Of a stretch of 31,795 bases of DNA, positions 3,478 through 21,300 are shown in pieces (the stretch's first letter is position 1; each line of letters begins with the position of its first letter). Made by a program: the position numbers and the translations under genes. Under the pieces are notes generated by a model that was given only the letters and a program-made list of their open reading frames with translations, made no database searches and was not told the DNA's origin. The DNA comes from an uncultured Zetaproteobacteria bacterium. Lineage in GTDB: Bacteria > Pseudomonadota > Zetaproteobacteria > Mariprofundales > Mariprofundaceae. Location of the stretch: NCBI GenBank assembly GCA_964534165.1, contig CAZHOU010000001.1, forward strand, positions 1 to 31,795, in the 5' to 3' direction.

Positions 3478-3560
3478 TCCCCAAGAATACAGCAGGCTAC
3501 CTGGCCGGGAAACCTTGCCTGCCGGCGGGGACGCGGCATTCATTGAAATTTCATCCAACC

Positions 3561-3974
3561 ATGACTACGATGCGTCGAATGCAGCGGGTGCTTCTACGAC
3601 AGCGGAAGGTCAGAGGCGTTCTATTGACCGCCTTTGCCGTGCAGATCATGGCGATGGGTTTTTGTGCCTTGCCTTCGGCACAGGCCGCCCCGATATATAG
3701 CCATGCAAATGCCGCCATGCATGCACAATGCCCGATGCCTGTTCAAAACGATGCACCCGCCTGCCCGCACTGCACTTGGCCGGACATTGGTGTTTCGGCC
3801 TCTCACGGCCCGGAGGCGGCGGTCCTGTTCTTCCAGGCAGCCACTATCCTTCCTCCGGCGGTTCCAGCAGCTTCCCCACCCCGCGTACTGCACGCATCCT
3901 CGCATCATGCGATCCGACTTGCGGGGCGAGGATCCACCCTGATCTACAGGACCAGTCTGCGCATCCGCATCTGA
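3561..3974 (+). CDS. DUF2946-like exported leader protein with CxxC (candidate copper-sensing regulatory peptide)
   Basis: Signal peptide ending SAQA|AP, Met/His segment (HANAAMHAQCPMP), CPHC motif, Pro-rich tail (LPPAVPAASPPR), end LIYRTSLRIRI; directly upstream of the TolC gene. Family assignment from overall architecture. Confidence 0.7.
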   Translation: MTTMRRMQRVLLRQRKVRGVLLTAFAVQIMAMGFCALPSAQAAPIYSHANAAMHAQCPMPVQNDAPACPHCTWPDIGVSASHGPEAAVLFFQAATILPPAVPAASPPRVLHASSHHAIRLAGRGSTLIYRTSLRIRI

Positions 3975-3976
3975 TT

Positions 3977-4042
3977 CAAACCTCCTAAGCCATTCGTGCA
4001 GGTCTCAGACCTGCATGCTTCTACTGCATTTCAGGAGGTTTG
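3977..4042 (+). promoter_or_regulatory. RBS-sequestering mRNA structure (anti-SD/SD duplex with inner hairpin)
   Basis: CAAACCTCCT (3977-3986) is the exact reverse complement of AGGAGGTTTG (4033-4042), which contains the SD of the TolC gene; inner hairpin TGCAGGTC-TCA-GACCTGCA (3997-4015). Confidence 0.75.
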
Positions 4043-4044
4043 TC

Positions 4045-5349
4045 TTGCCTATTCGAAGAACGATGCTGTCCACGCTGCTGGCGCTGGCAACGGCCGCATT
4101 CCCGGCTCTTGCAATCCCGGCGCAATCCGAAACGACGACACCCATGTCCCTGCATGAAGCCGAAAAGACCGCGCTCGGAGCCAATGCCGGACTGGCCGCA
4201 TCGCGAGCCCATGCGTCGGCCATGGCCGCCATCCCGCCGCAGGTAGGAAGCCTTCCCGACCCGAGTCTTTCCTTCGATGCCGTCAACCTGCCGGTGGACA
4301 CCTTCGCCACGGCGCAGGAGAACATGACACAATTGCGGCTGGGCCTGTCCCAGAAGATCCCCTTCCCCGGCAAACTTCGCCTGCGAAGCGAGGCCGCGCG
4401 GCTCCTGGCGTCCTCGGCCGCAATGGATACGGCGGAAACACGCCTGCGCCTGTTGCGCAACGTGCGCATCCGCTGGTGGAACCTGTTCTATCTCGATCGG
4501 GCACTGGAAATCGTGGAACGCAACGAGGATCTGCTGCGGCAATTCATCACCATTGCCCAAACCAAATACAAGGTGGGCAAGGGCCTGCAGCAGGATGTCC
4601 TTCTGGCGCAACTCGAACTCTCCAAATTGCTGGATATCGAGATCCGGCTCAAGGGCTCGCGCCGGGATGAGGAGGCGCGCTTGAACGCCCTCCTGAACCG
4701 GCCGACGAACCTCCATATTCGTCTGCCGTCACGGGTGAAGGAAACATTGCCGCCCCTTCCAAGCGAAACCAAACTGCATCAATGGGCCCTGGAATCGCGG
4801 CCCCTGCTGGCCGCACGCAGGGATCGGGTCAAGGCGGCGAAAAAACAGGTGGACCTGGCCGAACTCGACTACTACCCCGACTTCAAGATCAAAGGTGCCT
4901 GGGGCTTCCGGGGTGGGAACAACCCGGTGAACAACCAGCCGCGCCCGGATTTCGCCACTCTCGGCATCAGCCTCAACCTGCCGATCTACACCGCCACCAA
5001 GCAGGATCGTGAACTCGAACAGCGCAAGGCGGAAGTGGCCAGGGAAGAGTTCGCGCTGCGTGACACACAGGAGGCGGTGTGGTCCGAGGCATCCAACGCC
5101 CTCGCCGACTATCTCCGCGCCCGCGAACAGGCAAGCCTGTTCAAGACCGGCATCATCCCCCAGGCCAATCAGACCGTGGCCTCGATGCTGGCCGGCTATC
5201 AGGTCAACAAGGTGGATTTTCTGAACCTCGTCCGCTCTCAAATCACGCTCTACAACTATGAAACGCTGTACTGGAAAGCCCTGGCCGGGGCAAGACAGAG
5301 CCTGGCACGCCTGGAAGCGGCGGTTGGAAAGGAGATCGTTCATGAATAA
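4045..5349 (+). CDS. TolC-family outer-membrane efflux channel (CusC-equivalent)
   Basis: ORF 4015..5349; AGGAGG at 4033-4038 favours TTG 4045. Signal peptide, SLPDPSLSF, SQKIPFPGKL, LNALLNRP, ISLNLPIY repeats typical of OEP proteins; first gene of an RND triplet. Confidence 0.9.
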   Translation: MPIRRTMLSTLLALATAAFPALAIPAQSETTTPMSLHEAEKTALGANAGLAASRAHASAMAAIPPQVGSLPDPSLSFDAVNLPVDTFATAQENMTQLRLGLSQKIPFPGKLRLRSEAARLLASSAAMDTAETRLRLLRNVRIRWWNLFYLDRALEIVERNEDLLRQFITIAQTKYKVGKGLQQDVLLAQLELSKLLDIEIRLKGSRRDEEARLNALLNRPTNLHIRLPSRVKETLPPLPSETKLHQWALESRPLLAARRDRVKAAKKQVDLAELDYYPDFKIKGAWGFRGGNNPVNNQPRPDFATLGISLNLPIYTATKQDRELEQRKAEVAREEFALRDTQEAVWSEASNALADYLRAREQASLFKTGIIPQANQTVASMLAGYQVNKVDFLNLVRSQITLYNYETLYWKALAGARQSLARLEAAVGKEIVHE

Positions 5350-6721
5350 ACGCATGCTCGCCATTGTCGTCCTGAGCCTGGCGCTCGGTCTCGGGGCTGG
5401 CTACGGCCTGGCTCATCTGCGTGTCACCAAGGGCATGAACACATCCCCGGCGGCAACCGCGGGAAAGAAGGCGATATCCGAACGCAAACCGCTCTTCTAC
5501 CGCAACCCGATGCATCCGGAAATCACTTCGCCGGTGCCGGCCAAGGATGCCATGGGCATGGACTACATCCCCGTCTACCCCGAAGACCTGGGCGGTGGAG
5601 GCAAAAGGCCCGGCACTGTCGTGATCGACCCGACCGTCGTGCAATCCATCGGTGTGCGCACGGCTATCGCTGTGCGCAAGCAGATCTCCCGCACGATCCA
5701 GACCGTGGGCCGGGTGGACTACGACGAGGAGTTCATGACGCGGCTGCACCCGAAGATCAGCGGCTGGATCGACAAGTTGTTTGTCAGCGACACCGGAACA
5801 AGGGTCAAGCGCAATACGATGCTTCTGGCCTTGTATTCCCCGGAACTCGTGACCAGCGAGGAGGAATACTTACTGGCGCTGAAAAACTACGCCACGCTCA
5901 AGACCAGCCCCTTTCCCGATATCCGCAAGGGTGCCTTGGATCTGCTCCGCTCCGCCCGTGAACGGCTTGAACTGCTGGATGTTCCCAAACACCAGCTCGA
6001 GCAGCTGACCAAAACGAGAAAGGTCATGAAGAACCTGCACATCCATTCCCCGTTTCCGGGCATTGTCGTGCACATCGGTGCCCGCGAGGGCCAATACGTG
6101 ACACCCGCCACCGAACTCTACCGCATCGCCGATTTGTCGCGCGTATGGACCTACGTGGACGTCTATGAATACGAACTGCCGTGGGTTCAGGTGGGGGACA
6201 CGGCCGAAATGCGGCTGGAAGCGATCCCCGGCCGCGTGTTCACCGGCATCATCACCTACATCTACCCGTATCTGGACCCCAAGACACGAACCAACAAGGT
6301 GCGGCTCGAATTCACCAATCCGGACCTGTTGCTCAAACCGGACATGTTCGCCGATGTCACGATCCACGCCCGCCGCAAGATGAACGCCGTGGTCATCCCG
6401 ACCGAGGCCGTGATCCGAACCGGCGGAACGCCCAAGATCTTCGTCGTGCGCGGTCCCGGTGTCTTCGAGCCCCGCGACGTGCGCCTGGGCGTTTCCACCA
6501 ACGCCGAAACGCAGATTCTCGCGGGCGTGTCTCCCGGCGAACGGGTCGTGACCTCGGCGCAATTCCTGATCGATTCCGAATCCTCGCTCAAGGAAGCCGC
6601 GGCCAAGATGATGGCCCCAAAGAAATCCCCCACCCCGGTGCGGGAAGGCGGAGACAAGAAGATGAAAGGCATGCAGGGAATGGACATGCCGGAAACGTCG
6701 GCCGGGGAATCGCATGAATGA
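5342..6721 (+). CDS. cusB: CusB-type RND periplasmic adaptor subunit
   Basis: N-terminal anchor; FYRNPMHP...KDAMGMDY Met-triad region; GWIDKL, YSPELV, IADLSRVW, LKPDMFA, SAQFLIDSES; Met-rich tail. ATG 5342 overlaps the TolC stop. Confidence 0.92.
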   Translation: MNKRMLAIVVLSLALGLGAGYGLAHLRVTKGMNTSPAATAGKKAISERKPLFYRNPMHPEITSPVPAKDAMGMDYIPVYPEDLGGGGKRPGTVVIDPTVVQSIGVRTAIAVRKQISRTIQTVGRVDYDEEFMTRLHPKISGWIDKLFVSDTGTRVKRNTMLLALYSPELVTSEEEYLLALKNYATLKTSPFPDIRKGALDLLRSARERLELLDVPKHQLEQLTKTRKVMKNLHIHSPFPGIVVHIGAREGQYVTPATELYRIADLSRVWTYVDVYEYELPWVQVGDTAEMRLEAIPGRVFTGIITYIYPYLDPKTRTNKVRLEFTNPDLLLKPDMFADVTIHARRKMNAVVIPTEAVIRTGGTPKIFVVRGPGVFEPRDVRLGVSTNAETQILAGVSPGERVVTSAQFLIDSESSLKEAAAKMMAPKKSPTPVREGGDKKMKGMQGMDMPETSAGESHE

Positions 6722-7010
6722 CGCAGGCTATCCAAAAGAAAAGGCCTTCATTCCCCCTGCCTTTTCTTTGCGCAAACCAGCGACCCTGGCCCGGATTTTT
6801 CATGGGAACGCGCCTGCCTGCCGCGACTCCGGCGCAGGCATGGATGGACGGCGCAGGCAAGAAAGGGGCTGCGAAATGCAAGGGGTCACGATGCAAAAGC
6901 ACATCGGTTTCGACGCAACCCCTTCATGCTTTTCGATCGTTCAAATCCCGGCGCGTGATCATCATGAAAGATCCGGGCTGGTGATGAAGGGCATGGTGAA
7001 ATCATCATGA
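6714..7010 (+). other. Possible 98-aa ORF filling the cusB-cusA gap (unverified)
   Basis: ATG overlaps the cusB stop and TGA overlaps the cusA ATG (ATGA); no recognisable family. Confidence 0.25.
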
Positions 7011-10000
7011 TCGGGCGCATCATCGAATTGTCGCTGGCCAACCGCTTCCTGGTCTTCATGGCCACGGCACTCCTGATCGCTGCCGGCGCACTGGCCATCA
7101 AGAAGATGCCGCTCGATGCCATTCCCGATCTCTCCGACGTGCAGGTGATCGTATTCACCGAGTTCCCGGGGCAGGCGCCGCAGGTGGTCGAGGACCAGGT
7201 CACCTATCCGCTGACGACGGCCATGCTGGCCGTGCCGCATGCCAAGGTCGTACGCGGCTATTCCTTTTTCGGCTTTTCGTTCGTGTACATCATCTTCGAG
7301 GACGGCACCGACATGTACTGGGCCCGGAGCCGGGTTCTGGAATACCTGAATTACGCCGCCAAGTTCCTCCCGGCCGGCGTCACCCCGACGCTGGGGCCGG
7401 ACGCCACCGGCGTCGGCTGGGTGTACGAATACGCACTCGTGGACCGTTCCGGAAAACACGACCTGTCGGAACTCCGCTCCATCCAGGACTGGTATCTCCG
7501 GTACGCGTTGCAGACCGTTCCCGGGGTTTCGGAGGTCGCCTCGGTCGGCGGTTATGTCAAGCAGTACCAGGTGGAGGTGGATCCGAACAAGCTGGCCTTC
7601 TATAAGATTCCGCTCTCCAAGGTCAAACGCGCCATCCAGCGAAGCAACAACGATGTCGGGGGCCGCCTGATCGAGATGGCCGAATCCGAATTCATGGTCC
7701 GGGCGCTCGGCTACATCAAGTCCCTCGACGACATCCGCAACATTCCCATTGGTGTCGACAAACAGGGTACACCCATCTACGTGCGCGATGTCGCGGATGT
7801 GCACCTCGGGCCCGAACTGCGCCGGGGCCTTGCGGAGTTGAACGGCGAGGGGGAAGTGGCCGGCGGGGTCATCGTCATGCGCTATCGCGAAAATGCGCTC
7901 GAGGTCATCAAGCGCGTGAAGGCGAAGCTGGAGGAATTGAAGGCCGGCTTGCCCGACGGCGTCGAGATCGTTCCCACCTACGACCGCAGCAGCCTGAGCC
8001 TGCGCGCCGTCGAAAACCTCAAGGACAAGCTGCTGGAGGAGTTCATCGTCATCTCTCTCGTCTGCGTGCTGTGTCTGCTGCATGCCAGGAGCGCCTTGGT
8101 CGCCGTGCTGACCCTGCCGCTGGGTGTGCTCGTGGCCTTTATCCTCATGCAATGGCAGGGGCTTGCGGCCAACATCATGAGCCTGGGCGGCATCGCCATC
8201 ACGCTTGGCGCCATGGTGGATGGGGCCATTGTGTTGATCGAAAATGCCCACAAGCATCTCGAGCGGGCGCTGGTCAAAAAACAGAACGTCATTGCGAGCA
8301 GTTCGGAGCAATCTTCGGAGGCCGAGGTTGCCACCGGGGCCCCGCCTTCTCGCCATGACGCGGATGTCACCCTCACCACCAAGGAGCGCTGGAAGGCCGT
8401 GAGCACGGCCGCCAAGGAGGTCGGCCCGGCGCTGTTCTTCTCGCTCGTCATCATCACCATCTCCTACACCGCGGTGTTCACCCTGGAAGCACAGGAGGGA
8501 CGGCTGTTCAAGCCGCTGGCCTTCACCGCCACCTACGCCATGCTCGGTGTCGCCCTGCTGGCAGTGACGCTGACGCCGGTGTTGATGGGTTATTTCATCC
8601 GTGGCCTCATCCTGCCGGAGAAGAAAAACCCGGTGAATCGCGGGCTCATCGCTGTGCACCGGCCGCTTTTGAACCTCACGCTCAAGGGCAAATGGATCTC
8701 GCTTCTCTTGGCGCTGGTGCTCCTCTCAAGCGCCGCCTGGCCACTTTCCAAACTGGGGAGCGAATTCATGCCGCCGCTGGACGAGGGGGACATCCTCTAC
8801 ATGCCCACCACCTTTCCCGGCGTCTCGATCACCAAGGCCAAGGAAATGCTGCAACAGACGGACAAGATCCTGAAAACCTTTCCGGAGGTGAAGACCGTGT
8901 TCGGCAAGGTCGGTCGCGCCGAGACCTCCACCGACCCGGCCCCGCTGTCGATGATGGAGACCATCATCCAGCTCAAGCCCCGCTCCGAGTGGCCGCATCC
9001 GGAGATGAGCACACGCGCGCTGATGCGCAAGATGGACAAGGCCATTCATTTTCCAGGACTGGCCAATGCCTGGACCTATCCGATCAAGACCCGCAACGAC
9101 ATGCTCTCCACCGGCATCAAGACGCCCATCGGCGTGAAGATCTCCGGTCCCGACCTTTCCACCCTGCAGCGCCTGACGGAAAAGATCGAGGATGTGCTGA
9201 AGGGCCTTCCGGAAACCCTGTCCGCGTTCGGTGATCGTGCCGTCGGCGGCCATTACGTGGACTTCCGCATCAAGCGCAAGGAGGCGGCCCGGTACGGCCT
9301 GACCGTTGGGGACGTCGAGGACGTGATCCAATCAGCCATCGGCGGCATGAACATCACGCAGACGGTGGAAGGACTGGAACGCTACCCGGTCAACCTGCGC
9401 TACCCGCGGGCCTACCGGGATGACATTGAGGTCTTGAAGCGGGTGTTGATCCCGACTCCCACCGGCGCCCAGATCCCGCTGGTGCAGGTGGCGGACATTC
9501 GCCTTGTCGGCGGCCCGCCGTCCATCAAGAGCGAGGCGGCCCGTCCCAATGCCTGGATCTACGTCGACCTCAAAACCTCGGATATCGGCGGCTATGTGGC
9601 CAAGGCCAAACAAGCCATCGCCGCACATGTCAAGCTTCCGCCCGGCTACGCCATTGGCTGGTCCGGCCAGTTAGAGTACATGCAGAGAGCGGCGGCCCGG
9701 CTTCGAATCGTCATCCCGCTGACGTTGGTGGCCATCTTCCTGCTGCTCTACTTCAATTTCCGCAATCTGACGGAGCCGCTCGTGGTCATGCTCGCCGTCC
9801 CCTTTGGGCTGATCGGAGGATTCTGGCTCGTCTGGTGGCTGGGTTTCAATCTCAGCGTCGCTGTCGGTGTCGGCTTCATCGCCCTGGCCGGTGTGGCAGT
9901 GGAAATCGGAGTTCTGGTGCTCACATTCATCGACCAGGAGGTGGCTGAGTTCCGGAAGGACAGGCAGGGAGGTGGGCTGACCGCGGTGGAGATCATGGAA

Positions 10001-10246
10001 GCGGTACGCAGCGGCACTGGCAAACGCGTGCGTCCGATCGCGATGACGGCAACGGCGGTAATCGCGGGGCTGTTGCCCATCATGTGGGGGTCGGGCACCG
10101 GCTCGGATGTCATGCAACGCATCGCCGCGCCGATGATCGGCGGCATGCTGACCACCACCCTCCTGTGCCTGCTGATCCTGCCGCTCATCTACGCCCTGAT
10201 CCTGCAGGTGCAGGAGCGGCGCCGCCTGAAGAGGGAGGAGCAATGA
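7007..10246 (+). CDS. cusA: CusA/SilA-family Cu(I)/Ag(I) RND efflux permease
   Basis: LDAIPDLSDVQVI, GPDATGVGW, NIMSLGGIA; the three metal-site Met contexts EFMPPLDEG, PAPLSMMET, DMLSTG; KRVRPIAMT. Confidence 0.96.
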   Translation: MIGRIIELSLANRFLVFMATALLIAAGALAIKKMPLDAIPDLSDVQVIVFTEFPGQAPQVVEDQVTYPLTTAMLAVPHAKVVRGYSFFGFSFVYIIFEDGTDMYWARSRVLEYLNYAAKFLPAGVTPTLGPDATGVGWVYEYALVDRSGKHDLSELRSIQDWYLRYALQTVPGVSEVASVGGYVKQYQVEVDPNKLAFYKIPLSKVKRAIQRSNNDVGGRLIEMAESEFMVRALGYIKSLDDIRNIPIGVDKQGTPIYVRDVADVHLGPELRRGLAELNGEGEVAGGVIVMRYRENALEVIKRVKAKLEELKAGLPDGVEIVPTYDRSSLSLRAVENLKDKLLEEFIVISLVCVLCLLHARSALVAVLTLPLGVLVAFILMQWQGLAANIMSLGGIAITLGAMVDGAIVLIENAHKHLERALVKKQNVIASSSEQSSEAEVATGAPPSRHDADVTLTTKERWKAVSTAAKEVGPALFFSLVIITISYTAVFTLEAQEGRLFKPLAFTATYAMLGVALLAVTLTPVLMGYFIRGLILPEKKNPVNRGLIAVHRPLLNLTLKGKWISLLLALVLLSSAAWPLSKLGSEFMPPLDEGDILYMPTTFPGVSITKAKEMLQQTDKILKTFPEVKTVFGKVGRAETSTDPAPLSMMETIIQLKPRSEWPHPEMSTRALMRKMDKAIHFPGLANAWTYPIKTRNDMLSTGIKTPIGVKISGPDLSTLQRLTEKIEDVLKGLPETLSAFGDRAVGGHYVDFRIKRKEAARYGLTVGDVEDVIQSAIGGMNITQTVEGLERYPVNLRYPRAYRDDIEVLKRVLIPTPTGAQIPLVQVADIRLVGGPPSIKSEAARPNAWIYVDLKTSDIGGYVAKAKQAIAAHVKLPPGYAIGWSGQLEYMQRAAARLRIVIPLTLVAIFLLLYFNFRNLTEPLVVMLAVPFGLIGGFWLVWWLGFNLSVAVGVGFIALAGVAVEIGVLVLTFIDQEVAEFRKDRQGGGLTAVEIMEAVRSGTGKRVRPIAMTATAVIAGLLPIMWGSGTGSDVMQRIAAPMIGGMLTTTLLCLLILPLIYALILQVQERRRLKREEQ

Positions 10247-10719
10247 GAGAGAAAACCATGCGAAAGATCGTTTGTAGCGTCACCTGCATCCTGTGCATCG
10301 GATTCGCACCGGGTACGGTTGTACAGGCTCAGGAGGAACCACACCACCAGGTGGATGGCGCGCAAAAAACCCGGGCACTTGAGGGTGTAGCCATGATTCG
10401 GGAACACGTGGATGGTTACACGGTGAGCTTCCGCGTCATGCCCGCGACAGCGGACATGCGGCACGGCGGCACGCACAATCTGATGATTCGGGTGGAAAAG
10501 GACGGACGGGCGCTTCACGACCTGCTCGTCAACTCCAGGGTGTCCCACCCGATCAAGGAGACGGAGAACAAGATGATGGCCAGAATGGGGGATTGGTACA
10601 TGGCCGGATTTGATCTGGGTCATCCCGGAACACATCAAATCATGGTCCTGTTCAAGACTCCGGACGGGAAGGTCCATCTGGGAAGCATCGAATATCGAAC
10701 AGGGAGGAACAAGAAATGA
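10243..10719 (+). CDS. Exported Met/His-rich small protein (YtkA/FixH-like fold suspected), paralog A
   Basis: ATG overlaps cusA stop; signal peptide; motif KMMARMGDWYM; clear similarity to 11432..11890. Confidence 0.75.
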   Translation: MREKTMRKIVCSVTCILCIGFAPGTVVQAQEEPHHQVDGAQKTRALEGVAMIREHVDGYTVSFRVMPATADMRHGGTHNLMIRVEKDGRALHDLLVNSRVSHPIKETENKMMARMGDWYMAGFDLGHPGTHQIMVLFKTPDGKVHLGSIEYRTGRNKK

Positions 10720-11435
10720 ACATCAATGAGACGACAACCACAGTTGCAGGTATACGAACCATCCTTCAGGAAGCGCTCCAGCCCGTGCGTGCGGGATTGC
10801 TGATGGCGACAGGAGCCATGATCCTCGGCGTGCTGTGGGCCGGATACATGGCGATCAATCATGAGCAATTGCACGGCGGCTTCGAGAAGCAGGAAGCCGT
10901 ACTCAAGGCGGGAGGAACACCACCACGGATCGATGAAAATAACACGTCAATGGGCATCAAGCTGATTCCCCGGGCCTATGCCCACGGGGATCACGAAGAC
11001 CATGGAACAGGCCTTCCCGATGCTTTGCACCAGCATTCCCACTCGGGCAGCCTGGCCATGGATGCCATGCGGCGCCTGCTGCGCGGCCACATCCATTGGA
11101 TGGGACTTGGACTCCTGTCCGCCATGATGTTGCTTGTCCTCGCCTTCACTTCCCTGCGACCCGGCTGGAAAACCCTCCTCGGATGGGCCTTAGGCATTGG
11201 CGCGCTGGCCTACCCTTCCGCCTGGATCCTGATGGGCTTCCGCACCGTGGTCATGGGCCCGGATGCAGCCAAAGCAAGCGTGATGTGGCTGTTCGTCCCG
11301 CCAGCCGTCCTGCTGCTGGGATCGCTGGTCGTCGTTTTCGGTATCCTGATGCTTGAAATGACGGGTTGGCACAGGAAGACATTTTTCCCCCGCTTTTTTG
11401 AAAAGCCCGTGCCGGTTGCCGAGGAACGGGAATGA
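10716..11435 (+). CDS. 4-TM membrane protein with His-rich loop
   Basis: Four hydrophobic segments, loop AHGDHEDH...LHQHSH, HIH motif at the start of TM2; overlaps neighbours by 4 nt at both ends. Confidence 0.75.
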   Translation: MNINETTTTVAGIRTILQEALQPVRAGLLMATGAMILGVLWAGYMAINHEQLHGGFEKQEAVLKAGGTPPRIDENNTSMGIKLIPRAYAHGDHEDHGTGLPDALHQHSHSGSLAMDAMRRLLRGHIHWMGLGLLSAMMLLVLAFTSLRPGWKTLLGWALGIGALAYPSAWILMGFRTVVMGPDAAKASVMWLFVPPAVLLLGSLVVVFGILMLEMTGWHRKTFFPRFFEKPVPVAEERE

Positions 11436-11890
11436 AATTTCTGCCGCTCTTTCTTGTCGCCCTTGGCCTGATGGACCCCGGCTACGTCCACGCCACCGAG
11501 GCTGGGCCCGGCCACAACCAGGCTTCGATGCGGCATGAGGAGGGATTCATCGTCCGCAAGGGGATTCGCGACGATTACACGGTGGTCTTTCACATCATGC
11601 GCTCACCCAAGGGCATGCGCTACAGCAAGGAGCAGTATCACCTGATGGTGGTGGTGGAGAAGGAAGGCCGGCCGATCACCGGCCTGCACATGATCTCCAG
11701 GGTCAAACACCCCGACGGAAGCGTTGAACGGAAGAGCATGATGCACATGGGAGAATGGTACATGGCGCTCTACAACCTGAGTCACGATACGGGCAGGCAT
11801 TGGATCACCGTCGAATTCGAGGTGGGTGGAGAGAAATACCTGGCCGGCACCTATTATCCTGAAATGGATTTTAGTGGTGAGTCAAGATGA
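11432..11890 (+). CDS. Exported Met/His-rich small protein, paralog B
   Basis: Signal peptide; motif KSMMHMGEWYM; similarity to 10243..10719; coupled start and stop. Confidence 0.75.
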   Translation: MKFLPLFLVALGLMDPGYVHATEAGPGHNQASMRHEEGFIVRKGIRDDYTVVFHIMRSPKGMRYSKEQYHLMVVVEKEGRPITGLHMISRVKHPDGSVERKSMMHMGEWYMALYNLSHDTGRHWITVEFEVGGEKYLAGTYYPEMDFSGESR

Positions 11891-12276
11891 ATCCCATGAA
11901 GTCGAAAAGCTTGTTTTCAATCTTGCTACTGATTCTCTTGGCAAGCACGATGAACTTTTTCCCCGAATCCTCATGGGGAGAGCCCTTGCAGATGGTGGAT
12001 CCCAAAAATGTCTGCATGGTCAACGACAAGAACATGGGCAAGCCGCAAATTCCCATTATCGTACAAGGCCGAACCTATTACGGCTGTTGCAACATGTGCG
12101 TGGGCGCACTGACCAATGATCAAGAAATGCGCCGGGCCATCGATCCGCTAAGCGGCCGAAAGGTGGACAAGTCTCAAGCGATCATTGGTGCGAGAGAAAA
12201 TGGGGACGTGCTCTATTTCGAGAGCAGATCAAACTTCGCTGCTTATCAAAAAAGCCATAAGAGGGGACGGCCATGA
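11887..12276 (+). CDS. Exported TRASH/YHS-domain metal-binding protein
   Basis: Signal peptide, VCMVND...GRTYYGCCNMC, AIDPLSGRKVDK. Confidence 0.8.
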   Translation: MNPMKSKSLFSILLLILLASTMNFFPESSWGEPLQMVDPKNVCMVNDKNMGKPQIPIIVQGRTYYGCCNMCVGALTNDQEMRRAIDPLSGRKVDKSQAIIGARENGDVLYFESRSNFAAYQKSHKRGRP

Positions 12277-12506
12277 AAGAAATCATCTTCTGGATCGGCG
12301 GCATGAAATGCGACGGATGCGAACTGACCGTCCGAAAGGCACTGTTGAAACTCGGCGGGATCATCGATGTCCATGCCAATCACAAGACAGGTCAAGTGCG
12401 ACTGAAGATCCATGAACCCGATTTCAGCATCCGGGAAGTTGACAACACCCTTTGCAGCCTCGGCTTTGAACCCATTGTTTATGAAGGCCTCAAGCATGCC
12501 AGATAA
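12273..12506 (+). CDS. HMA-domain copper chaperone (CopZ-like)
   Basis: 77 aa with IGGMKCDGC metal-binding loop and ferredoxin-like pattern. Confidence 0.88.
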   Translation: MKEIIFWIGGMKCDGCELTVRKALLKLGGIIDVHANHKTGQVRLKIHEPDFSIREVDNTLCSLGFEPIVYEGLKHAR

Positions 12507-12813
12507 CGAAACAGCCATCGAAATGGAACGAAGCTTTCGGGTGGACAAAACACAGTGTGCGGGGTGTGAGGCCACCATCGAGCAACGGCTTCTCGCCATC
12601 CCGGGTGTACTGGATGCAAAGGCGGATGCTGCAACCGGCGAGATCCGGGTTCGTTATGATTTGCGCAAAGTCCGTTTCGATACTCTTCCGACTGTCGTTG
12701 AAGAGGCCGGATTTCCACGTGTCTTTGAGTTCAGCGATGAACATCACCAGGATTTCCTCTGGAGTCTGAAGGAGGAGGAGGCTCTGAAGGAAGCAAGGCG
12801 CCATGCGAAGTAG
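12496..12813 (+). CDS. HMA-domain protein with acidic/His C-terminal extension
   Basis: TQCAGC loop, IPGVLDAKAD, VRYDLRKV; tail DEHHQD. Start moved to ATG 12496 overlapping the upstream gene end. Confidence 0.8.
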   Translation: MPDNETAIEMERSFRVDKTQCAGCEATIEQRLLAIPGVLDAKADAATGEIRVRYDLRKVRFDTLPTVVEEAGFPRVFEFSDEHHQDFLWSLKEEEALKEARRHAK

Positions 12814-12840
12814 CGGACACTCTCCCGCGAGCGCTCCGCC

Positions 12841-12904
12841 CGGTGGGCTTCATGTTGAACGATGGAGGAGGATCCGAATTGAGCGTCGAGTGGGAAGCCC
12901 ACCG
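12841..12904. repeat. Perfect 11-bp inverted repeat with 42-nt spacer
   Basis: CGGTGGGCTTC (12841-12851) and GAAGCCCACCG (12894-12904); spacer contains GGAGGAGG. Confidence 0.7.
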
Positions 12905-13002
12905 AAACCGTTCATTGTGGCGGCACGTGAACTCCCCATCCGAACCTTAGCCCGCGCGTGGACGAATCCGCAGATCTTTCCGACCGTTGCCGGGGGAGCG
13001 GG

Positions 13003-13740
13003 ATGATCCGGGATCCGGTATGCCTGATGGTGGTCCACCCCGGAAACGCGGCCGGCATGTTGGAGTACGAAGGCCGCAGTTACTATTTCTGTTCCAAGGC
13101 ATGCCGGAATAAGTTCATACAGCGACCGCAGAAGTTCATTGAGAACACCCCCGGTATGCGCATAACCGTTGGAGTCATGGGCTCGGCCGATACGGAGCAT
13201 ACCGATGCCATCCGGGAGCGGGTGTTTGCGATGGGTCAGGCTATTGCCAAGCGAGGATTGGTCCTTGTCACCGGAGCTTGCCCGGGCTTGCCCTATGATT
13301 GCGCCATGGGTGCAAAAAAAGCAGGAGGTCTGTCAGTCGGCACCTCTCCGGCCCTGAGTCTCGATGAGCATGTCCACAAGTATCACTCTCCCCCCGATGC
13401 TTTTGATGTATTGATTTATACCGGTAGTGGGTTGATGGGGCGCGAGGTGACAAACATTCGCTCCAGTGACATGGTGATTATCGTGGGGGGGCGCTCGGGC
13501 ACCCTTGGGGAATTCGCCATTGCCTACGATGAAGGAAAGCTGATCGGCGTACTCAAGGGCAGCGGTGGTATCACGGATCTGATTCCGGACCTGGTGGCAA
13601 GCTTTGGCAAAAACACGGGGGCGTATATCGTCTATGCCACCGATCCCAATTCCTTGGTTGCACAGCTCCTCTCACGCTATGAAACTCACCATTTCAGGCG
13701 GCCGTCGTGCTTTTGTGACGAGCGGCCGGCCTCCGGGTAA
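13003..13740 (+). CDS. YHS domain fused to a LOG/SLOG-family nucleotide-binding domain
   Basis: DPVCLMVV...YEGRSYYFCSKAC (YHS), then ITVGVMGSA, VTGACPG, GGRSGTLGEF (LOG). Start at ATG 13003 after a GGGGGAG SD. Confidence 0.85.
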   Translation: MIRDPVCLMVVHPGNAAGMLEYEGRSYYFCSKACRNKFIQRPQKFIENTPGMRITVGVMGSADTEHTDAIRERVFAMGQAIAKRGLVLVTGACPGLPYDCAMGAKKAGGLSVGTSPALSLDEHVHKYHSPPDAFDVLIYTGSGLMGREVTNIRSSDMVIIVGGRSGTLGEFAIAYDEGKLIGVLKGSGGITDLIPDLVASFGKNTGAYIVYATDPNSLVAQLLSRYETHHFRRPSCFCDERPASG

Positions 13741-13742
13741 CC

Positions 13743-14681
13743 ATGCCACCCTCTCGAATTGGAGTGGTGTTGAGCGCAGGCGGTATACGCGGCGTCTATG
13801 CTCACACGGGATTCCTGCAAGCCGCGGAGGAGATGGACATTCCCATCTCGGCCATGGCCGGATGTAGCGCGGGCGCCGTCGTGGGTGGAATCTACGCGAG
13901 TGGGACCGCATTGAAAACGTGGGCACAGGCTCTCTACAGGGTGCGGCCGGAAGACTTTTGGCCCCCACGATCGTTATGGTGTTCCATGTGGGATGTGGTC
14001 GTAACCAAAGGCCGAAGGTTCACGGGCATCTCCAAAGTGGACCCTGCAACCACATTCTGCCGCAAACACCTGGCGGTCTGCGATTTCGAGGATTGCCGCA
14101 TCCCGTTCTATGCCCTTGCAATCTGTCTTGCCAGTGGAGAAAAAACCGTTTTCTCGAAAGGGGATCTGGCACCGCGTATTGTCGCCAGTGCTGCAATTCC
14201 GTTTTTGTTCCAGCCGGTTGAGATTGAAGGAAAGTATTTTTGCGACGGTGCCGTCATTGACCTGGCGCCAACCGATGCGATTTGTTGCAAGCATGGTCTG
14301 GATGTCTTGATCGTCCACCATGTCGCAAACCGGAAACGGGGGTTCCATGGCGTAAGAGCGGCATCCCCGGAAGCCTGGCCTATGGTGGAGATTCTCGACA
14401 CATTGCTATTCCGTCACCGTCCGTGGTACCTCTCCGAGCAAAGACTCGCGTTCAGGCGCTGCCCCTGCGGCTGCAAGGCGTTGATTGTGGTCTTGGAACC
14501 CGATTTGCCGGAATTGCCCTGGCCCCAAACGCAACAAGGGCCAACCATACTTCGCTCGGCCTGCAATCAAGTCAAATCCTTGCTGGCCCCACATTTGGAA
14601 GCGTTGTGCAGGAATCCAACCAGCCTTTATGCATTGGCGAGAAACGTTCGCCAAATCCGCGGCAGGGACGTACAATGTTAG
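13743..14681 (+). CDS. Patatin-like phospholipase
   Basis: Oxyanion loop LSAGGIRG, nucleophile GCSAG, ASAAIP, catalytic DGA. Confidence 0.88.
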   Translation: MPPSRIGVVLSAGGIRGVYAHTGFLQAAEEMDIPISAMAGCSAGAVVGGIYASGTALKTWAQALYRVRPEDFWPPRSLWCSMWDVVVTKGRRFTGISKVDPATTFCRKHLAVCDFEDCRIPFYALAICLASGEKTVFSKGDLAPRIVASAAIPFLFQPVEIEGKYFCDGAVIDLAPTDAICCKHGLDVLIVHHVANRKRGFHGVRAASPEAWPMVEILDTLLFRHRPWYLSEQRLAFRRCPCGCKALIVVLEPDLPELPWPQTQQGPTILRSACNQVKSLLAPHLEALCRNPTSLYALARNVRQIRGRDVQC

Positions 14682-14714: not shown

Positions 14715-14798
14715 ATGTACTGTTCCCCGTTCTACGACTTGCGCAGAAACCCGCATACGATGAATCCATGGGTAGCGCCCCCCGATCTCCTTGCGTAG
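14715..14798 (+). other. Possible 27-aa upstream ORF before copA ([27 protein letters not shown])
   Basis: GGAGG at 14701-14705, ATG 14715, TAG 14796-14798; no family recognised. Confidence 0.25.
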
Positions 14799-14973
14799 CC
14801 GCTCTTCGACACAAAAGAGGTTTTTCCATGCTTCTGCGCCATCCGGATCCCAAGCAGTTGTGGGTTTCGGCTTCAAGCGATGTGACTCCGGTCATGGCAG
14901 CCGCCGTTCCATGCGGGGGCCATGGGGTGGGAAACAAACTATTTGCACGATCAATGTTGGAAAGGAGAGCGGC

Positions 14974-17544
14974 ATGAGAAAAGACCCGGTATGCGGCATG
15001 GAGGTTGACGAAAAGAGCAGGTTCCGCCGCACCTTTCGTGGCGCCGAATTCCTGTTCTGCAGCGAACGTTGCCTCGAACGCTTCAGCGAGAATCCAAACG
15101 ACTGGTTGCCCGAGAAATGCGCCTTCGATCCGGTCTGCGGCATGAAGGTGCCTCTCGAATCCACGAACCGCATCGAACATGCCGGACAAAACTATTATTT
15201 CTGTTCGCAGCACTGCATCGACAAGTTCCGTGAAAACCCCGGCGCCTACACGGGCAGGAAACACCCTCCCCGTCACGAACACGAGAAGAAGCCGACACCG
15301 GAAACCACCGCTGCGGAAGGGATGTATTTCTGCCCCATGTGCCCCGGGCAAGAGCAGCAGGGGCCTGGGGTGTGCAAATCGTGCGGCATGGCCCTGGAGC
15401 CGATGCCGGGAGCCCAAACACCCGGGAAGACCGAGTATTTCTGTCCCATGCATCCGGAGATCGTCCGTGATCAGCCCGGGAGTTGCCCGAAGTGCGGGAT
15501 GGCGCTGGAAGCGCGCCTTGTCGCCGTCCAGGAAGAAGAAAATCCGGAATACCGGGATATGCTGCGGCGTTTCAAGCTCGGCGTGGTGCTGATCGTTCCC
15601 CTGTTCCTCCTCGCCCTCGGCAGCGAACTCGCGCCCTCTCACCTGCCCGCATGGCTGTCGCCGAAGCTCGTCCAGTGGCTCGAATTCATCCTTGCCGCTC
15701 CCGTCGTTCTGTGGGGTGGCTGGCCCTTCTTCGTCCGCGGCTGGCAATCGCTCTTCCACCGGCATCTGAACATGTTCACGTTGATCGGCCTGGGCGTGGC
15801 GGTTGCCTTCACCTACAGCCTCGTGGCACTGCTAGCCCCCGATTTGTTCCCGGCGATCATGCGCAAGGCCGGGGGGCGGGTTGACGTTTATTTCGAGGCC
15901 GCGGCCGCCATCACCGTCCTCGTGCTGCTGGGGCAGGTGTTGGAGCTGCGCGCCCGATCCCGCACCAACGAAGCCATCAAGCTCCTGCTCGGCATGGCGC
16001 CGAAAACGGCCCGGCGCGTCCGTGCCGACGGCAGCGAGGAGGATGTGCCGCTGCAAGACGTCCATCCCGGCGATATTCTGCGCATCCGGCCGGGAGAGAA
16101 GGTGCCGGTGGATGGCGTGGTCACCGATGGCGAGAGCCATGTAGATGAATCGATGGTCACCGGCGAGCCGATGCCGGTGGTGAAAAGCGCGGGCGATCCC
16201 CTGATCGGCGCCACGGTCAACGGCAACGGCACGCTGCTCATGCGGGCCGAGAAGGTTGGATCGGAAACCCTGTTGGCGCAGATCGTGGACATGGTCCGCG
16301 AGGCGCAGCGGACCCGGGCCCCGATCCAAAGGCTCGCCGACATGGTGGCCTCCTGGTTCGTGCCCGCGGTCGTGGCGGTCTCCGCCATCACCTTCGTCGT
16401 CTGGTTCGTGGCTGGCCCCGAGCCCCGGCTTGCGCATGCCGTCGTCAACGCGGTCGCCGTTCTGATCATTGCCTGTCCCTGCGCCCTGGGGCTGGCCACA
16501 CCGATCTCGATCATGGTCGGTACCGGCCGCGGCGCCACGGCCGGTGTTCTGATCAAGAACGCCGAGGCCCTGGAGATGATGGAAAAGGTGGATACACTGG
16601 TCGTGGACAAGACCGGCACACTGACCGAGGGCAAACCGCGGCTTACCAGCATCCTTCCGCTCGGTGATTTCAGTGAGGAGGAAATCTTGAAATGGGCCGC
16701 TGGTGTCGAACGCGCCAGCGAGCATCCCCTGGCCACGGCCATACTGGAAGCGGCGCGAATACGCGGCCTCAAACCGGAATCCATCGAAAATTTCAAGGCC
16801 GTCACCGGCAAGGGAGTGCGCGCGAAGGTCGCAGGGCACGAAATCCTGCTGGGCAATGTGGCCCTGATGCGGGAAGCCGGCATCGACACCTCCCCCATGG
16901 AAGCGCTTCGGGGAGAACAAAGACAGGCCGGAGAGACCATCCTCCATCTTGCCGTGGACGGGGAGGCGGCCGCGCAGCTCGGTGTCTCCGACCCGATCAA
17001 GTCCTCGACACCCGCGGCCATCCAGGCCTTACATGCCGAGGGTCTTGAAGTGGTGATGTTGACCGGGGACCGGCACGACACCGCCGCGCTCGTTGCGGAA
17101 AAACTCGGAATCGATCGCGTCATCGCCGAGGTCCTGCCGCAGCAAAAGGCGGAGGTCGTGAAGGAACTGCAACGCGAGGGACGCATCGTGGCCATGGCCG
17201 GAGACGGCATCAACGATGCCCCGGCGCTGGCCGCCGCCCATGTCGGCATCGCCATGGGAACGGGTACGGATGTGGCAATGGAGTCGGCCGGAATCACGCT
17301 GGTCAAGGGGGATCTGAACGGCATCGTCCGAGCCCGCCGCCTATCGCGGGCCGTGATGCGGAACATCCGTCAGAATCTGTTCTTCGCCTTTGTTTACAAC
17401 TCCCTCGGCGTGCCGGTCGCTGCCGGTGTCCTATATCCTTTCTTTGGCGTCCTTCTTTCACCGATCATCGCCGCGGCGGCCATGAGCTTCTCCTCGGTTT
17501 CGGTGATCACCAATGCCCTCAGACTGCGGAAAGTGAGGCTGTAA
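14974..17544 (+). CDS. copA: Cu(I)-translocating P1B-1 ATPase with two YHS and two CPM-type metal-binding domains
   Basis: DPVCGM x2, [37 protein letters not shown] and MSFSS; SD AAGGAG before ATG 14974. Confidence 0.96.
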
Positions 17545-18526: not shown

Positions 18527-19981
18527 GTGCGTGCGCCGCTTGCATGGAAGATCGGCTGCTGGCTCGGCGTAGTGTTCGCACTGGTCGTCTATGTCGGCTG
18601 GCACATGGTGATGGATTTCAATGCTCTTCACCGCGAGGCGCGATTCATCGAAACCGTCAATCATGAAAGCCATTACCTGCATGAGCTGGAGATGGCGCTT
18701 GTCCATACCATCGCTCCGGTGAGATCGTATCTGATCAGTGGCGACTGGCGCCTGCCGGACGCGTTCGCAAGGAAAAGCGCCCACATGCGCCATTTGCTGC
18801 ACGCCTCCGTCTCCGGCCGTGTACGTGATCTCCATCTCGAACGTTCCCTGGCAGAAATCACCGTCCGGGCCAAGCATATCTTCTCGTTGCCGTTTCCCGT
18901 CGGCAACCTGGAGGGCCCGATTCTCATGCGCGAGATCGACGATATCGTCAACCACGTATCGCAGCGACTGTCGGCAAGGCACGACGAGCTGCACCAGGGA
19001 GTGGTAATGTCGATGCGCAAGGTTGGTGTCATGCGCAAGGACATGCGGACGGACTTCCAGCTTTCCATCCTTCTTCTTTTCTTCATTCTGACCGGCATGA
19101 CCATGTGGCTCTACATGCACATGGTCCGCCCGCTCGTGCACCTGCAACGTGAGCTGAAAAAAGTGGGTCGGGGAGAATTCGACATCCATTGCCCCAGACT
19201 GCCGATGGATGAACTGGGAGAACTGGCACAGGCCTGCAATTTGATGGGTGAAGCGCTGCAGACACGGGAGGCCATGTTGAACCATGCACGCAACATGGCC
19301 GCCCATCACGAGAAAATGCGGGCACTGGGACTGATGGCCGCCGGCATCGCCCATGAAGTGGGGAACCCGCTGTCGGCCACTTCGGTTTCCCTCGAAACCG
19401 CCTTGCGCGGCCTGGAGCGGAAGAATTACGAAAAATGCAGAGAGGGGGTGTTGACGGCCCTGGAGGAATTGAAACGTATGGAGAGCATCATCCGCAACAT
19501 CCTCGATTACGGCGCCGTCAACAATGAAACCTCCTTGACCCGCATTGATGCCGTACCGGTGGCTCGGAGCGCCTTCTCCCTGGCGCGCATGTCACCGCAA
19601 CGACGGCAAGTGGATCTCAAATTTGAAATCGAATCCTCAAGCCTGTTCGCCCGTGGCAATGCCTCCATCCTGCGACAGGTCCTGGTCAATCTTCTCCTCA
19701 ACGCCATGGATGCCTGCAGCGAAGAAGGATGCGTCTCGCTCAAGGCCACGCGTCTGGACGGCGGTATCGCTCTGGATGTTTCCGACAACGGCCCCGGTGT
19801 ACCGGAACATATGCGGGAGGAAATTTTCACACCGTTGTTCACCACCAAATGCAGCGGTTCCGGTTCAGGGGTCGGCCTGGCCATCAGCCGCGAGCTGATG
19901 CAACGTATGCACGGAAAACTTGAACTCGTGCACAGCGACGGCCGCGGCAGCCGATTCCGTGCCTGGCTGCCTGCGGGATAA
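18527..19981 (+). CDS. Sensor histidine kinase (2 TM, periplasmic sensor, HAMP, HisKA, HATPase)
   Basis: H-box AHEVGNPL, N-box LLLNAMDA, DNGPGV, FTPLFTTK, GSGVGL; HAMP DELGELA. Confidence 0.92.
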   Translation: MRAPLAWKIGCWLGVVFALVVYVGWHMVMDFNALHREARFIETVNHESHYLHELEMALVHTIAPVRSYLISGDWRLPDAFARKSAHMRHLLHASVSGRVRDLHLERSLAEITVRAKHIFSLPFPVGNLEGPILMREIDDIVNHVSQRLSARHDELHQGVVMSMRKVGVMRKDMRTDFQLSILLLFFILTGMTMWLYMHMVRPLVHLQRELKKVGRGEFDIHCPRLPMDELGELAQACNLMGEALQTREAMLNHARNMAAHHEKMRALGLMAAGIAHEVGNPLSATSVSLETALRGLERKNYEKCREGVLTALEELKRMESIIRNILDYGAVNNETSLTRIDAVPVARSAFSLARMSPQRRQVDLKFEIESSSLFARGNASILRQVLVNLLLNAMDACSEEGCVSLKATRLDGGIALDVSDNGPGVPEHMREEIFTPLFTTKCSGSGSGVGLAISRELMQRMHGKLELVHSDGRGSRFRAWLPAG

Positions 19982-19992
19982 AGGCGGATCGC

Positions 19993-21300
19993 ATGCGTAT
20001 ACTGATCGTCGAAGACGAACGACATATCCGACAAGGCGTCATGAACGTACTCAACGAGGAAGGTTTCGATACCCTGGAAGCCGGCAACCTGCGGAAAGCG
20101 CTCGACATCCTTCGGGCGGGGGATGTGGACGCGATCCTGAGCGATATAAGGCTCCCTGACGGCGACGGTTTCGATCTTTTGCATGCCCTGAAGGCCAGGA
20201 ACGATCCCGTTCCATGCATTCTGATGACCGCCTTCGGCAATCGGGATATCGCCAACCAGGCCCTGAAGGAAGGCGCCTACGACTATATTTCGAAGCCCAT
20301 TCGCTTCGATGAATTGCTGGCGCGGCTGTTTTGCTTGCAAGAAAGGATCGAGCTGGAAAGGCGGCTGCAAAGCATGGCCGCCGCCCTCAAGGATGAAGGC
20401 AAACTCGCTTCGATGGGGAATTCCGCAGCCATGCGACAGGTTCGTTTCCTGGCCGAAAAGGCCGCGGCGGCCCGCTCGCCGGTGCTCATCCGTGGAGAAA
20501 GGGGAGTGGGCAAGCGAAGACTGGCTCACCTGATCCACATGACGAGCGAACGGGCGGCCGAACCGTTTGTGCAGTTGAGCTGCGCCTCCATTCCGGAGGA
20601 ATTGATGGAGCGGGAGCTGTTCGGCTATCGCCGCGGCGCCTTTCCGGGCGCGGACCGCGGATACGAGGGTATCTTGTCCAAGGCCGGGCGCGGCACATTG
20701 TTCTTGGATGAGGTCAGCGAGCTTCCGCGCATCATCCAGGCGGCGTTGTTGCGCGTACTGGACGACGGCTGCTTCCAGCCCTTGGGGGAGACCCGCAGGC
20801 AACCCTTTCAGGCCCGCATTATCACCGCCACCGACAAGGATCTGAGAAACGAGACCCTGCATGGGCGCTTTCGTGAGGACCTGTTTTTCTGCCTCGATGT
20901 GCTGCATATCGATATCCCGCCTCTGCGGGAGCGCCGGGAGGACATCGTGCCGCTGGCGGTGTCTATCCTGGAAAAGCTGGCCGCGGACCGGTCGATCCGG
21001 ATTGCACCCCTGGACGCCCGCCAATGCCTGTGGCTCAAATCGCAGGAATGGCCCGGCAATGTGCGGGAGTTGAGAAACACCCTGGAACGAGCATTGCTCC
21101 TGGCCCGGGACGGCAGGCTGGATCTGCCGCCTCGGAGAATGGTCGAAGGAAGAACGGGAGCGACACTCGCCGAGGCCACGGCGAATTTTGAGCGCAGCCT
21201 GATTCTGCAAACGATCGAGGCCTGCGACGGTGACAAGGAGGAGGCCAGCCGTCGTCTGGGTATCGGCTTGTCCACCCTGTATCGCAAATTGGGAACCTGA
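19993..21300 (+). CDS. NtrC-family response regulator (REC-AAA+-Fis HTH) with degenerate sigma-54 interaction motifs
   Basis: REC with VED, SDIRLPD, SKP; Walker A GERGVGK, GAFPGA, Walker B FLDEV, WPGNVREL; HTH LGIGLSTLYRKL. Confidence 0.9.
   Translation: MRILIVEDERHIRQGVMNVLNEEGFDTLEAGNLRKALDILRAGDVDAILSDIRLPDGDGFDLLHALKARNDPVPCILMTAFGNRDIANQALKEGAYDYISKPIRFDELLARLFCLQERIELERRLQSMAAALKDEGKLASMGNSAAMRQVRFLAEKAAAARSPVLIRGERGVGKRRLAHLIHMTSERAAEPFVQLSCASIPEELMERELFGYRRGAFPGADRGYEGILSKAGRGTLFLDEVSELPRIIQAALLRVLDDGCFQPLGETRRQPFQARIITATDKDLRNETLHGRFREDLFFCLDVLHIDIPPLRERREDIVPLAVSILEKLAADRSIRIAPLDARQCLWLKSQEWPGNVRELRNTLERALLLARDGRLDLPPRRMVEGRTGATLAEATANFERSLILQTIEACDGDKEEASRRLGIGLSTLYRKLGT

Follow-up and report, generated by a model that had tools for sequence, protein, structure and literature searches.

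In Rhodobacter capsulatus, expression of cutO is governed by CutF, through shielding of the downstream Shine-Dalgarno (SD) sequence and copper-induced stalling of this leader protein during its co-translational export (PMC9973294; 10.1101/2025.02.05.636593). CutF-like proteins form a network that unites SilD, CusD, CopL and CruR, and their most frequent downstream neighbours are genes of the OEP/CusC/CzcC/SilC group (PMC9973294). SilD and CusD of Cupriavidus metallidurans CH34, encoded in silDCBA of pMOL30 and in cusDCBAF of the chromid, are uncharacterised and were classed as CutF-like in the same study, while CruR (Bp2923) of Bordetella pertussis is encoded upstream of bfrG (PMC9426467). Here we analyzed a related locus in a stretch of 31,795 nt from an uncultured Zetaproteobacteria bacterium (contig CAZHOU010000001.1, hereafter the window), in which a small leader open reading frame (ORF) and a structured RNA junction precede a cusCBA operon for copper/silver efflux. 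We consider it probable that the leader and the junction together act as a cis-acting translational gate on this operon.

The leader ORF (positions 3579-3974, plus strand), defined by its translation, its relatives and hhalign profile comparison, encodes 131 amino acids (aa) counted from Met7, or 137 aa from the ATG at 3561, and ends with TGA 3972-3974. Its true start is probably ATG 3579 rather than ATG 3561, because a conserved promoter ends 7 nt upstream of ATG 3579, a codon that aligns with Met1 of the homologue P0001 (see below) and has no SD in front of it. Translation of 3561-3974 gives a basic N terminus, then a hydrophobic segment and then AQA|AP. The putative signal peptide or N-terminal anchor (3579-3686) thus read from the sequence consists of a basic n-region, a hydrophobic core of 18 residues that holds Q28 and C35, and the cleavage-type motif AQA; AlphaFold2, run with the family alignment, predicts a helix for residues 2-36 (predicted local distance difference test score, pLDDT, 90-96) and no fold for residues 40-137 (pLDDT 52-62). 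Further along lie C57, in the context QCPMP, and a CPHC motif (C68-x-H70-C71, residues 68-71; 3762-3773), which in the family takes the form C-x-H-C-D-x-P-D and may bind metal or form a disulfide. A linker (3774-3932) then leads to the C-terminal tail, STLIYRTSLRIRI followed by TGA (3933-3974), a candidate arrest or termination-pause peptide. A preliminary description of this DNA, made from the letters alone, had reported an exported CPHC protein ending at 3974, and the translation agrees with it. The "Pro-rich tail" of that description was a mistake: the Pro-rich stretch spans residues 97-110, within the linker, and the final 27 residues, which end in GRGSTLIYRTSLRIRI (tail LIYRTSLRIRI), contain no proline. 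The window was searched for a second copy of the leader and none was found.

The window leader had no match in Pfam or NCBIfam, and Pfam, including DUF2946 (PF11162; gathering score 23.7 bits), stayed blank even at E = 10. A word-indexed protein search returned a single homologue, P0001 (40% identity), from a Zetaproteobacteria metagenome-assembled genome (MAG; locus L001) with the gene order of the window, namely trmB in the opposite direction, leader, OEP, CusB, CusA, three unknown genes and HMA. The family opened up only when HMMER was run exhaustively with a profile of the two sequences, which gave 48 representatives of 126-150 aa; further profile searching and a metagenome scan raised the number of distinct relatives to ~90. 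Most of these come from marine metagenomes, and the few that have names belong to Mariprofundus or Mariprofundaceae. The first metagenome scan was blank; the full-family alignment proved too diverse for search patterns, and a tighter sub-alignment yielded 37 loci. Scanning genome contigs for the leader recovered one locus, which is L001, and tblastn against plasmids gave no real match. The leader is followed by an OEP homologue, heading OEP-CusB-CusA, at 38 of 42 loci and by a multicopper oxidase gene at two of the 42. As to a kinship with DUF2946, which the preliminary description had proposed, it holds at a distance and not for the window protein itself: sub-threshold matches occur in 13 of 46 relatives (best E = 0.0045), with P0012 aligning to profile positions 3-113 of 117 at 16.8 bits, and the family profile matches that of the SilD family with 95.5% hhalign probability (E = 1.6e-8, 102 columns), or SilD alone with 82% (E = 1e-5). 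The SilD family itself comprises 80 proteins, often named "copper resistance protein", and two of the 80 carry PF11162. The link of the leader family to DUF2946 is one of remote similarity only, and by these profile comparisons the leader is a remote member of the CutF-like superfamily, outside the Pfam model and the published PP rule.

Across 46 representatives, Q28, C35, C57, C68, H70, C71 and P74 are nearly invariant, and the spacing from Q to C in the signal core is 7-9 residues (87 proteins). The distance from the second cysteine of CxHC to the C terminus is 61-66 residues in 89 distinct proteins, 64-65 in 67 of them and 66 in the window, with a standard deviation of 1.03 aa against 4.4-5.5 aa for the other inter-cysteine segments. 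This linker, or "ruler", is nonetheless the stretch of the family least conserved in sequence, with ~16% identity between the window leader and P0001. The tail behaves differently. While flanking proteins of the window and L001 are 75-87% identical and the leaders 40%, their final 13 residues match at 11 of 13 positions, and the family consensus reads PTG(PP)RSSSLLYxTTQRIRI-stop, with the PP at positions -17/-16, L(-11) and R(-4) invariant, and the stop invariably 15 codons past the PP position. The choice among synonymous tail codons is free (Ser -14 is encoded in six ways, spanning both codon families; Arg is written CGC, CGT, CGA or AGA), and since the amino acids are fixed while the codons vary, selection acts on the peptide and not on the RNA. 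The PP is lost in the window leader and its closest relative (GRGS and LRSS) and in several others, and the tail is kept in all. The C terminus pointed out in the preliminary description is indeed distinct, and it is strongly conserved. Leader stop codons also deviate: among 39 distinct leaders (the window and L001-L051) there are 30 TGA, nine TAA and no TAG, compared with 39% TGA, 40% TAA and 20% TAG for 109 long ORFs of the same loci. A UGA or UAA leader stop fits pausing at termination that depends on release factor 2 (RF2), as in TnaC, and the bias seen here, while only suggestive, fits pausing at RF2-read stops.

Immediately downstream of the leader, the sequence CAAACCTCCT (3977-3986), which starts 3 nt past the stop codon, is the exact reverse complement of AGGAGGTTTG (4033-4042), and the two form a 10-bp stem, P1. 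The 3' arm of P1 holds AGGAGG (4033-4038), the SD of the cusC-like gene, and we refer to the 5' arm as the anti-SD. Between the arms, an inner hairpin P2, GUGCAGGUC-UCA-GACCUGCAU (3996-4016), pairs 3996-4004 with 4008-4016 through eight Watson-Crick pairs and one G.U. The perfect duplex burying the SD of a TTG-start outer-membrane gene, and the 8-bp hairpin inside it, had both been recognized beforehand and were confirmed. Region 3940-4060 folds at -38.1 kcal/mol (z = -3.06) and region 3972-4047 at -29.4 kcal/mol (z = -4.77), with none of 200 shuffled sequences folding as well; none of 400 random 33-nt segments of the same sequence matched the pairing of the SD region, and the pairing probability of the SD is 0.99. 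TTG 4045, 70 nt from the leader stop, sits 6 nt past AGGAGG and is the best-placed start of cusC, because the alternatives are poorly placed: the in-frame ATG 4015 precedes the SD and falls within the hairpin, and 24 nt separate the SD from ATG 4063. No Rfam family matches the junction, and a terminator scan of 3975-4044 gave zero terminator-like sites.

The same arrangement of leader, stop, anti-SD and hidden SD recurs in 36 distinct intergenic regions, where the SD core is paired with a median probability of 0.996, and with the 30 nt nearest the stop at 0.965. In nearly all loci a pyrimidine-rich arm lies 3-8 nt past the leader stop and is complementary to the SD of the next gene, while the arms themselves differ among loci: CAAACCTCCT/AGGAGGTTTG in the window, and AACTCCTCG/CGAGGAGTT, CGCTTTCTGCT/AGCAGGAGGCG and TTCCGTTTCTCTG/CGGAGAGATGGAA elsewhere. 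From a MAFFT alignment of 32 junctions, RNAalifold recovered P1 (anti-SD/SD) and two inner hairpins, P2 and P3, both rich in GC-to-AU and UA-to-CG swaps; every relative has P2, in differing sequences, and GC-to-AU swaps occur in 11-17 sequences per pair. A covariance model of the structure finds the element once per locus. In the alignment fitted to that model, 86.4% of cells pair, against 36-54% with slid partners, double-sided changes affect 25 of 28 pairs, and the covariation score is 0.418 against 0.06-0.14, values that none of 500 shuffles reached; these numbers lean towards structure because the alignment was fitted to the model, whereas the RNAalifold result is independent of that fit. 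Compensatory changes, which the preliminary description had suggested looking for, are thus present. The window junction has P1 and P2 only and scores low with the covariance model (31.7 bits). As a variant, in L008 it is the final codons of the leader and its stop, not an arm past the stop, that pair with the SD-adjacent region.

The leader is preceded by a sigma70-type promoter identified by consensus scan (3543-3571, plus strand), with a -35 TTGAAA at 3543-3548, a 17-nt spacer and a -10 TACGAT at 3566-3571. Of 41 distinct leader 5' regions, 33 carry the pattern TTGnnn-17-TAnnnT-(6-7 nt)-ATG, against an expectation of 0.0008 per 180-nt window scanned. Because this promoter-to-ATG layout is conserved, the leader mRNA is probably leaderless, starting at ATG 3579. 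A sigma54 promoter upstream of the leader was considered and rejected, matches to TGGCAC-N5-TTGC occurring at chance level and none of them near 3500.

The operon behind the junction begins with the TTG-started gene for a cusC-like outer-membrane factor (4045-5349, plus strand; Pfam OEP, E = 3.7e-40). It continues with a cusB-like membrane-fusion protein gene (5258-6721, plus strand; HlyD_D23, E = 6e-80, CusB subfamily as best NCBIfam match), whose true start may lie nearer 5346, and with cusA (7007-10246, plus strand), which encodes a Cu(I)/Ag(I) heavy-metal-efflux pump of the resistance-nodulation-division (RND) type (TIGR00914, 1243 bits). The window CusA scores 1266 bits against CusA of E. 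coli and 530 against ZneA, and it keeps the methionine triad, with Met at the positions aligned to M573, M623 and M672 (LYMP, SMMET, DMLSTG); by these alignments the pump is a true CusA orthologue. Copper also marks the wider context, with HMA and YHS proteins and a copper-type P-type ATPase encoded downstream, and with members of the family found before multicopper oxidase-CopB genes.

As in the cutF-cutO type of gate, a stem that begins near the leader stop masks the SD of the next gene, the leader appears to be a Sec-exported protein with a cysteine motif, and copper-induced arrest would, by the proposed mechanism, let the ribosome melt the stem; members of the family precede multicopper oxidases as well. 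The differences are that the target in the window is an RND pump, that the motif is CxHC where CutF has CxxxC, and that the junction family has two or three helices in place of one stem-loop. The published rules for CutF-like proteins (PMC9973294) comprise a length below 150 aa, an N-terminal signal peptide, a PP within the last 15 residues and a downstream-gene rule: the window leader conforms in length (131-137 aa) and in its downstream gene, 70 nt away, has the putative signal peptide described above, and lacks the PP.

SilD and CusD also resemble the leader family. They too are small exported proteins whose genes immediately precede the one for the outer-membrane component of a Cu/Ag RND pump, with Q...C in the signal peptide, C-x(1-2)-H-C, and a PP followed by a tail of 12-15 residues ending in [FI]RI-stop; SilD of pMOL30 has this layout in VQLAAAAYAC, CQAHC and PPPRPLAILHCCFRI-stop. 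At the silD-silC junction (L014, 19945-20040, minus strand), a stem starting from the silD stop codon sequesters the silC SD (-37 kcal/mol, z = -3.5), which makes silD-silC a tractable model for an equivalent gate. To present a copper efflux pump as a new target class, as in the preliminary description, was therefore overstated: the kind of system is already known, because OEP genes are reported as the commonest neighbours (PMC9973294) and silD-silC folds alike. SilD and CusD nevertheless differ in that the alignable region ends before the tail and the tails differ in sequence (LAILHCCFRI compared with SLLYxTTQRIRI in the leader family); their C terminus PPPPLAILHCCFRI is not shared, only the [FI]RI end and the PP position being common. 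Moreover, SilD and CusD keep a PPP of which the window leader has none, the CH34 genes have 5' leaders of 16-20 nt (PMC9045368) in contrast with the leaderless layout here, and the hosts differ at the phylum level. What is new is a family missed by curated models, with an invariant RIRI-stop tail and prolines lost in some members, a 64-66-residue ruler to the stop codon, a covarying multi-helix junction and a leaderless layout.

CzcI, encoded upstream of czcCBA in C. metallidurans, is likewise a small exported Cys/His protein before the outer-membrane gene of a heavy-metal RND system; it has no C-terminal proline motif (PMC9973294) and a weak DUF2946 match, as do some relatives of the window leader. 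It departs from them in its C terminus (...PQWQRLA, with no RIRI-type tail), in serving a divalent-cation pump and in its role as a "quencher" of Czc activity (PMC9045368). The locus may also be set beside a wider group of regulators. TnaC, SpeFL, SecM, VemP and MifM are arrest peptides that respond to export or work at translation termination; their likeness to the window leader would lie in a conserved C-terminal peptide in the exit tunnel and a stalled ribosome that remodels the downstream mRNA and exposes an SD. They share no sequence similarity with it, and here it would be the distal end of the same nascent chain that detects the ligand, on the other side of the membrane.

Based on the observed parts, their conservation, covariation and geometry, we propose a model that goes beyond them in four inferences: the leader is exported, the ribosome arrests at its stop codon, copper serves as the ligand, and copper turns the pump on. 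Transcription from the sigma70 promoter would yield an mRNA probably beginning at the leader AUG 3579. By default, the cusC SD would be locked in P1 and cusC would not be translated, with cusB and cusA following through coupling or polarity. When a stop codon occupies the A site, the mRNA channel of the ribosome also takes up ~7-9 nt downstream of it; at the leader stop the ribosome would cover 3975 to ~3983, melting 5-7 of the 10 P1 pairs and freeing the SD, and cusC initiation would then be set by the dwell time of the ribosome on the final leader codons. At this point CPHC would lie 66 residues from the peptidyl-transferase centre, about the span of the tunnel and SecYEG, and would just reach the periplasm, where Cu(I) on the cysteines, instead of disulfide formation and pulling, would prolong the pause. 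The conserved tail LIYRTSLRIRI would impose this pause at UGA, and the pump would be switched on, with the same polarity as CutF. A stall at the PP could not reach the anti-SD, because the PP lies 45-51 nt upstream of it, which leaves the tail next to the stop as the plausible arrest element. For the window leader, stalling on prolines of the kind sensitive to elongation factor P is excluded because there is no C-terminal PPP; with its prolines lost, an arrest could take place only at the stop codon. In its most specific and more tentative form, the model holds that L-I-Y-x-T-S-x-R-I-R-I-UGA could be a proline-independent termination arrest peptide whose dwell is set across the inner membrane by Cu(I) on a CxHC motif 64-66 residues away, with the covarying junction unmasking the cusCBA SD on a leaderless mRNA; we regard this as possible rather than probable. 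Transcript data from Cupriavidus would, by analogy, fit post-transcriptional gating: C. metallidurans transcribes cusD constitutively and leaves cusCBAF silent when metal is absent, and it has no local two-component system (PMC9045368, PMC10304878).

Several points weigh against the translational gate, or against its sensing part. Stalling, copper binding and export in the leader family are predictions from sequence, the covariation statistics come partly from a structure-fitted alignment, and many of the loci are related to one another. Arrest in CutF and CruR is driven by a PP that the window leader does not have, and we know of no arrest peptide with a ...RIRI-stop tail. The geometry of periplasmic sensing may not transfer either, because CruR regulation is independent of its export signal. 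Control could also be exerted at transcription, given that direct repeats TTCAT/TTTCAT, ~11 bp apart, are conserved and overlap the -35 (window 3538-3581) and could be an operator or a response-regulator box, and that genes for a histidine kinase and a sigma54 regulator at the distal end of the cluster of copper genes may add transcriptional regulation; no OmpR-type regulator was found in the window. Lastly, any translating ribosome opens P1 transiently, and the RNA architecture is accounted for by plain translational coupling, with no need of a sensor.

This last point leads to the alternative that fares best, although we consider it rather unlikely: the leader would be a mature Cu(I) chaperone, periplasmic or attached to the inner membrane, that feeds the pump, and the stem would merely couple translation at a fixed stoichiometry, with no sensing by the nascent chain. 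Conservation of the Cys and His motifs is compatible with such a protein, CusD of C. metallidurans has been interpreted in this way (PMC10304878), the geometry lets any ribosome that reaches the stop open P1, and the conserved -35 repeats would leave room for control at transcription instead. A chaperone is, however, difficult to reconcile with a mature part that is poorly conserved and has no predicted fold, or with a linker kept in length but not in sequence. What is most conserved is the final 13-17 residues, at a fixed distance from the stop, as is typical of peptides that interact with the tunnel, and the stop-codon bias counts in the same direction. CutF itself, moreover, is undetectable in vivo and rapidly degraded (PMC9973294).

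A switch of the CruR type, with reversed polarity, appears improbable. In it, arrest without copper would shield the transcript from Rho, and copper would relieve the arrest and let Rho terminate before cusC. The kinship through DUF2946 speaks for it, as does the length-conserved spacer from CXXC to a C-terminal motif, the distance from CxxC to PP being 47 residues in CruR (PMC9426467) and in the leader family alike; both leader ORFs head copper-related operons, and nascent RNA would be open to Rho if cusC were not translated. But copper shutting off a copper exporter would make no physiological sense, and a short stretch of 70 nt, built around SD masking, separates the leader from cusC. In cruR-bfrG the spacer is 162 nt, and CruR control combines this greater length with Rho-dependent termination and a polarity opposite to that proposed here. 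The window leader has neither RAPP nor PP; in CruR the RAPP stands three residues from the end, while the leader family continues for 15 residues past the PP position. CruR differs further in having a dispensable signal peptide and a TonB-dependent importer as its target. A transcription attenuator, with the inner hairpin as an intrinsic terminator whose formation depends on ribosome position, is more improbable still: ATTTTCATTTTTT directly follows the inner hairpin in L001, but a T-run is missing after the hairpin in the window and in most relatives, and we rejected the window hairpin as a terminator, given this absence and the blank scan of 3975-4044. That a chance ORF and a chance hairpin without function met here, as the lack of any curated family match for the leader might suggest, is practically excluded because ~90 homologues under purifying selection, conserved synteny, the promoter and the covarying RNA already refute it.

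Turning to the genes around the translational gate, the gap between cusB and cusA (6722-7006, 285 nt) is unusually long, compared with 127 nt in L001; the single ORF in it (98 aa, 6714-7010) has no family match and an implausible sequence, and looks spurious. Three successive overlapping ORFs of ~158, 239 and 152 aa follow cusA (10243-11890); they have no Pfam or NCBIfam match, show 57-68% identity and a kept order in the Zetaproteobacteria MAG (L001, 14552-16223), and may be accessory genes of the cus operon. Small metal-binding genes lie past the operon within 11887-14681, namely those for a YHS/TRASH-like exported protein (11887-12276), two HMA proteins that overlap in different frames (12273-12506 and 12412-12813) and a YHS-SLOG fusion (12958-13740), next to which is a patatin-like phospholipase gene. 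The copper-type P-type ATPase with YHS and HMBD domains is encoded at 14791-17544, and upstream of it a sigma54-like TGGAACCCGATTTGC occurs at 14494-14508, such matches being at chance frequency in the window. Further downstream are genes for a cytochrome c and an AhpC/TSA protein, and at the far end of the cluster those for the histidine kinase (HAMP-HisKA-HATPase; 18527-19981) and the NtrC-type sigma54 response regulator (19993-21300). The preliminary description had recognized no CusRS or CueR, and no CusR-, CopR- or CueR-type gene was found among the window ORFs scanned; the kinase and the sigma54 regulator qualify that statement.

On the other side of the leader, 0.8 kb upstream and on the same strand, a disulfide-forming VKOR-DsbA/thioredoxin fusion is encoded at 1512-2741. 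It may be relevant if disulfide formation between leader cysteines is part of sensing, and it does not lie beside the leader in L001. At other loci the module is found in different surroundings: in L004 (1-5808), leader-cusCBA lies just downstream of Tn7-like genes (TnsB, TnsC/TniB, TniQ/TnsD) and may be transposon cargo, and in L008 (6001-9174) and L050 (2501-3488) leaders of the family stand ahead of multicopper oxidase-CopB-DUF411 operons.

Nascent-chain copper sensing has been demonstrated for CutF and CruR only, of which neither governs an efflux pump and both rely on prolines, and we found no experimental test of a CutF-like leader upstream of an RND pump in the literature. The leader family described here offers a natural comparison set for how a periplasmic metal signal reaches the ribosome, with a fixed-length ruler, an invariant stop-ending tail, proline-less members and a covarying RNA gate, and it draws attention to small ORFs that current annotation and Pfam overlook. 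If the arrest model holds, this would be the first case of an RND efflux system shown to be under the control of an arrest peptide that senses metal across the membrane, with a new arrest motif, and it would explain how cus-type operons can be copper-responsive when no CusRS or CueR is encoded nearby, a gap also recorded for cusDCBAF of Cupriavidus.

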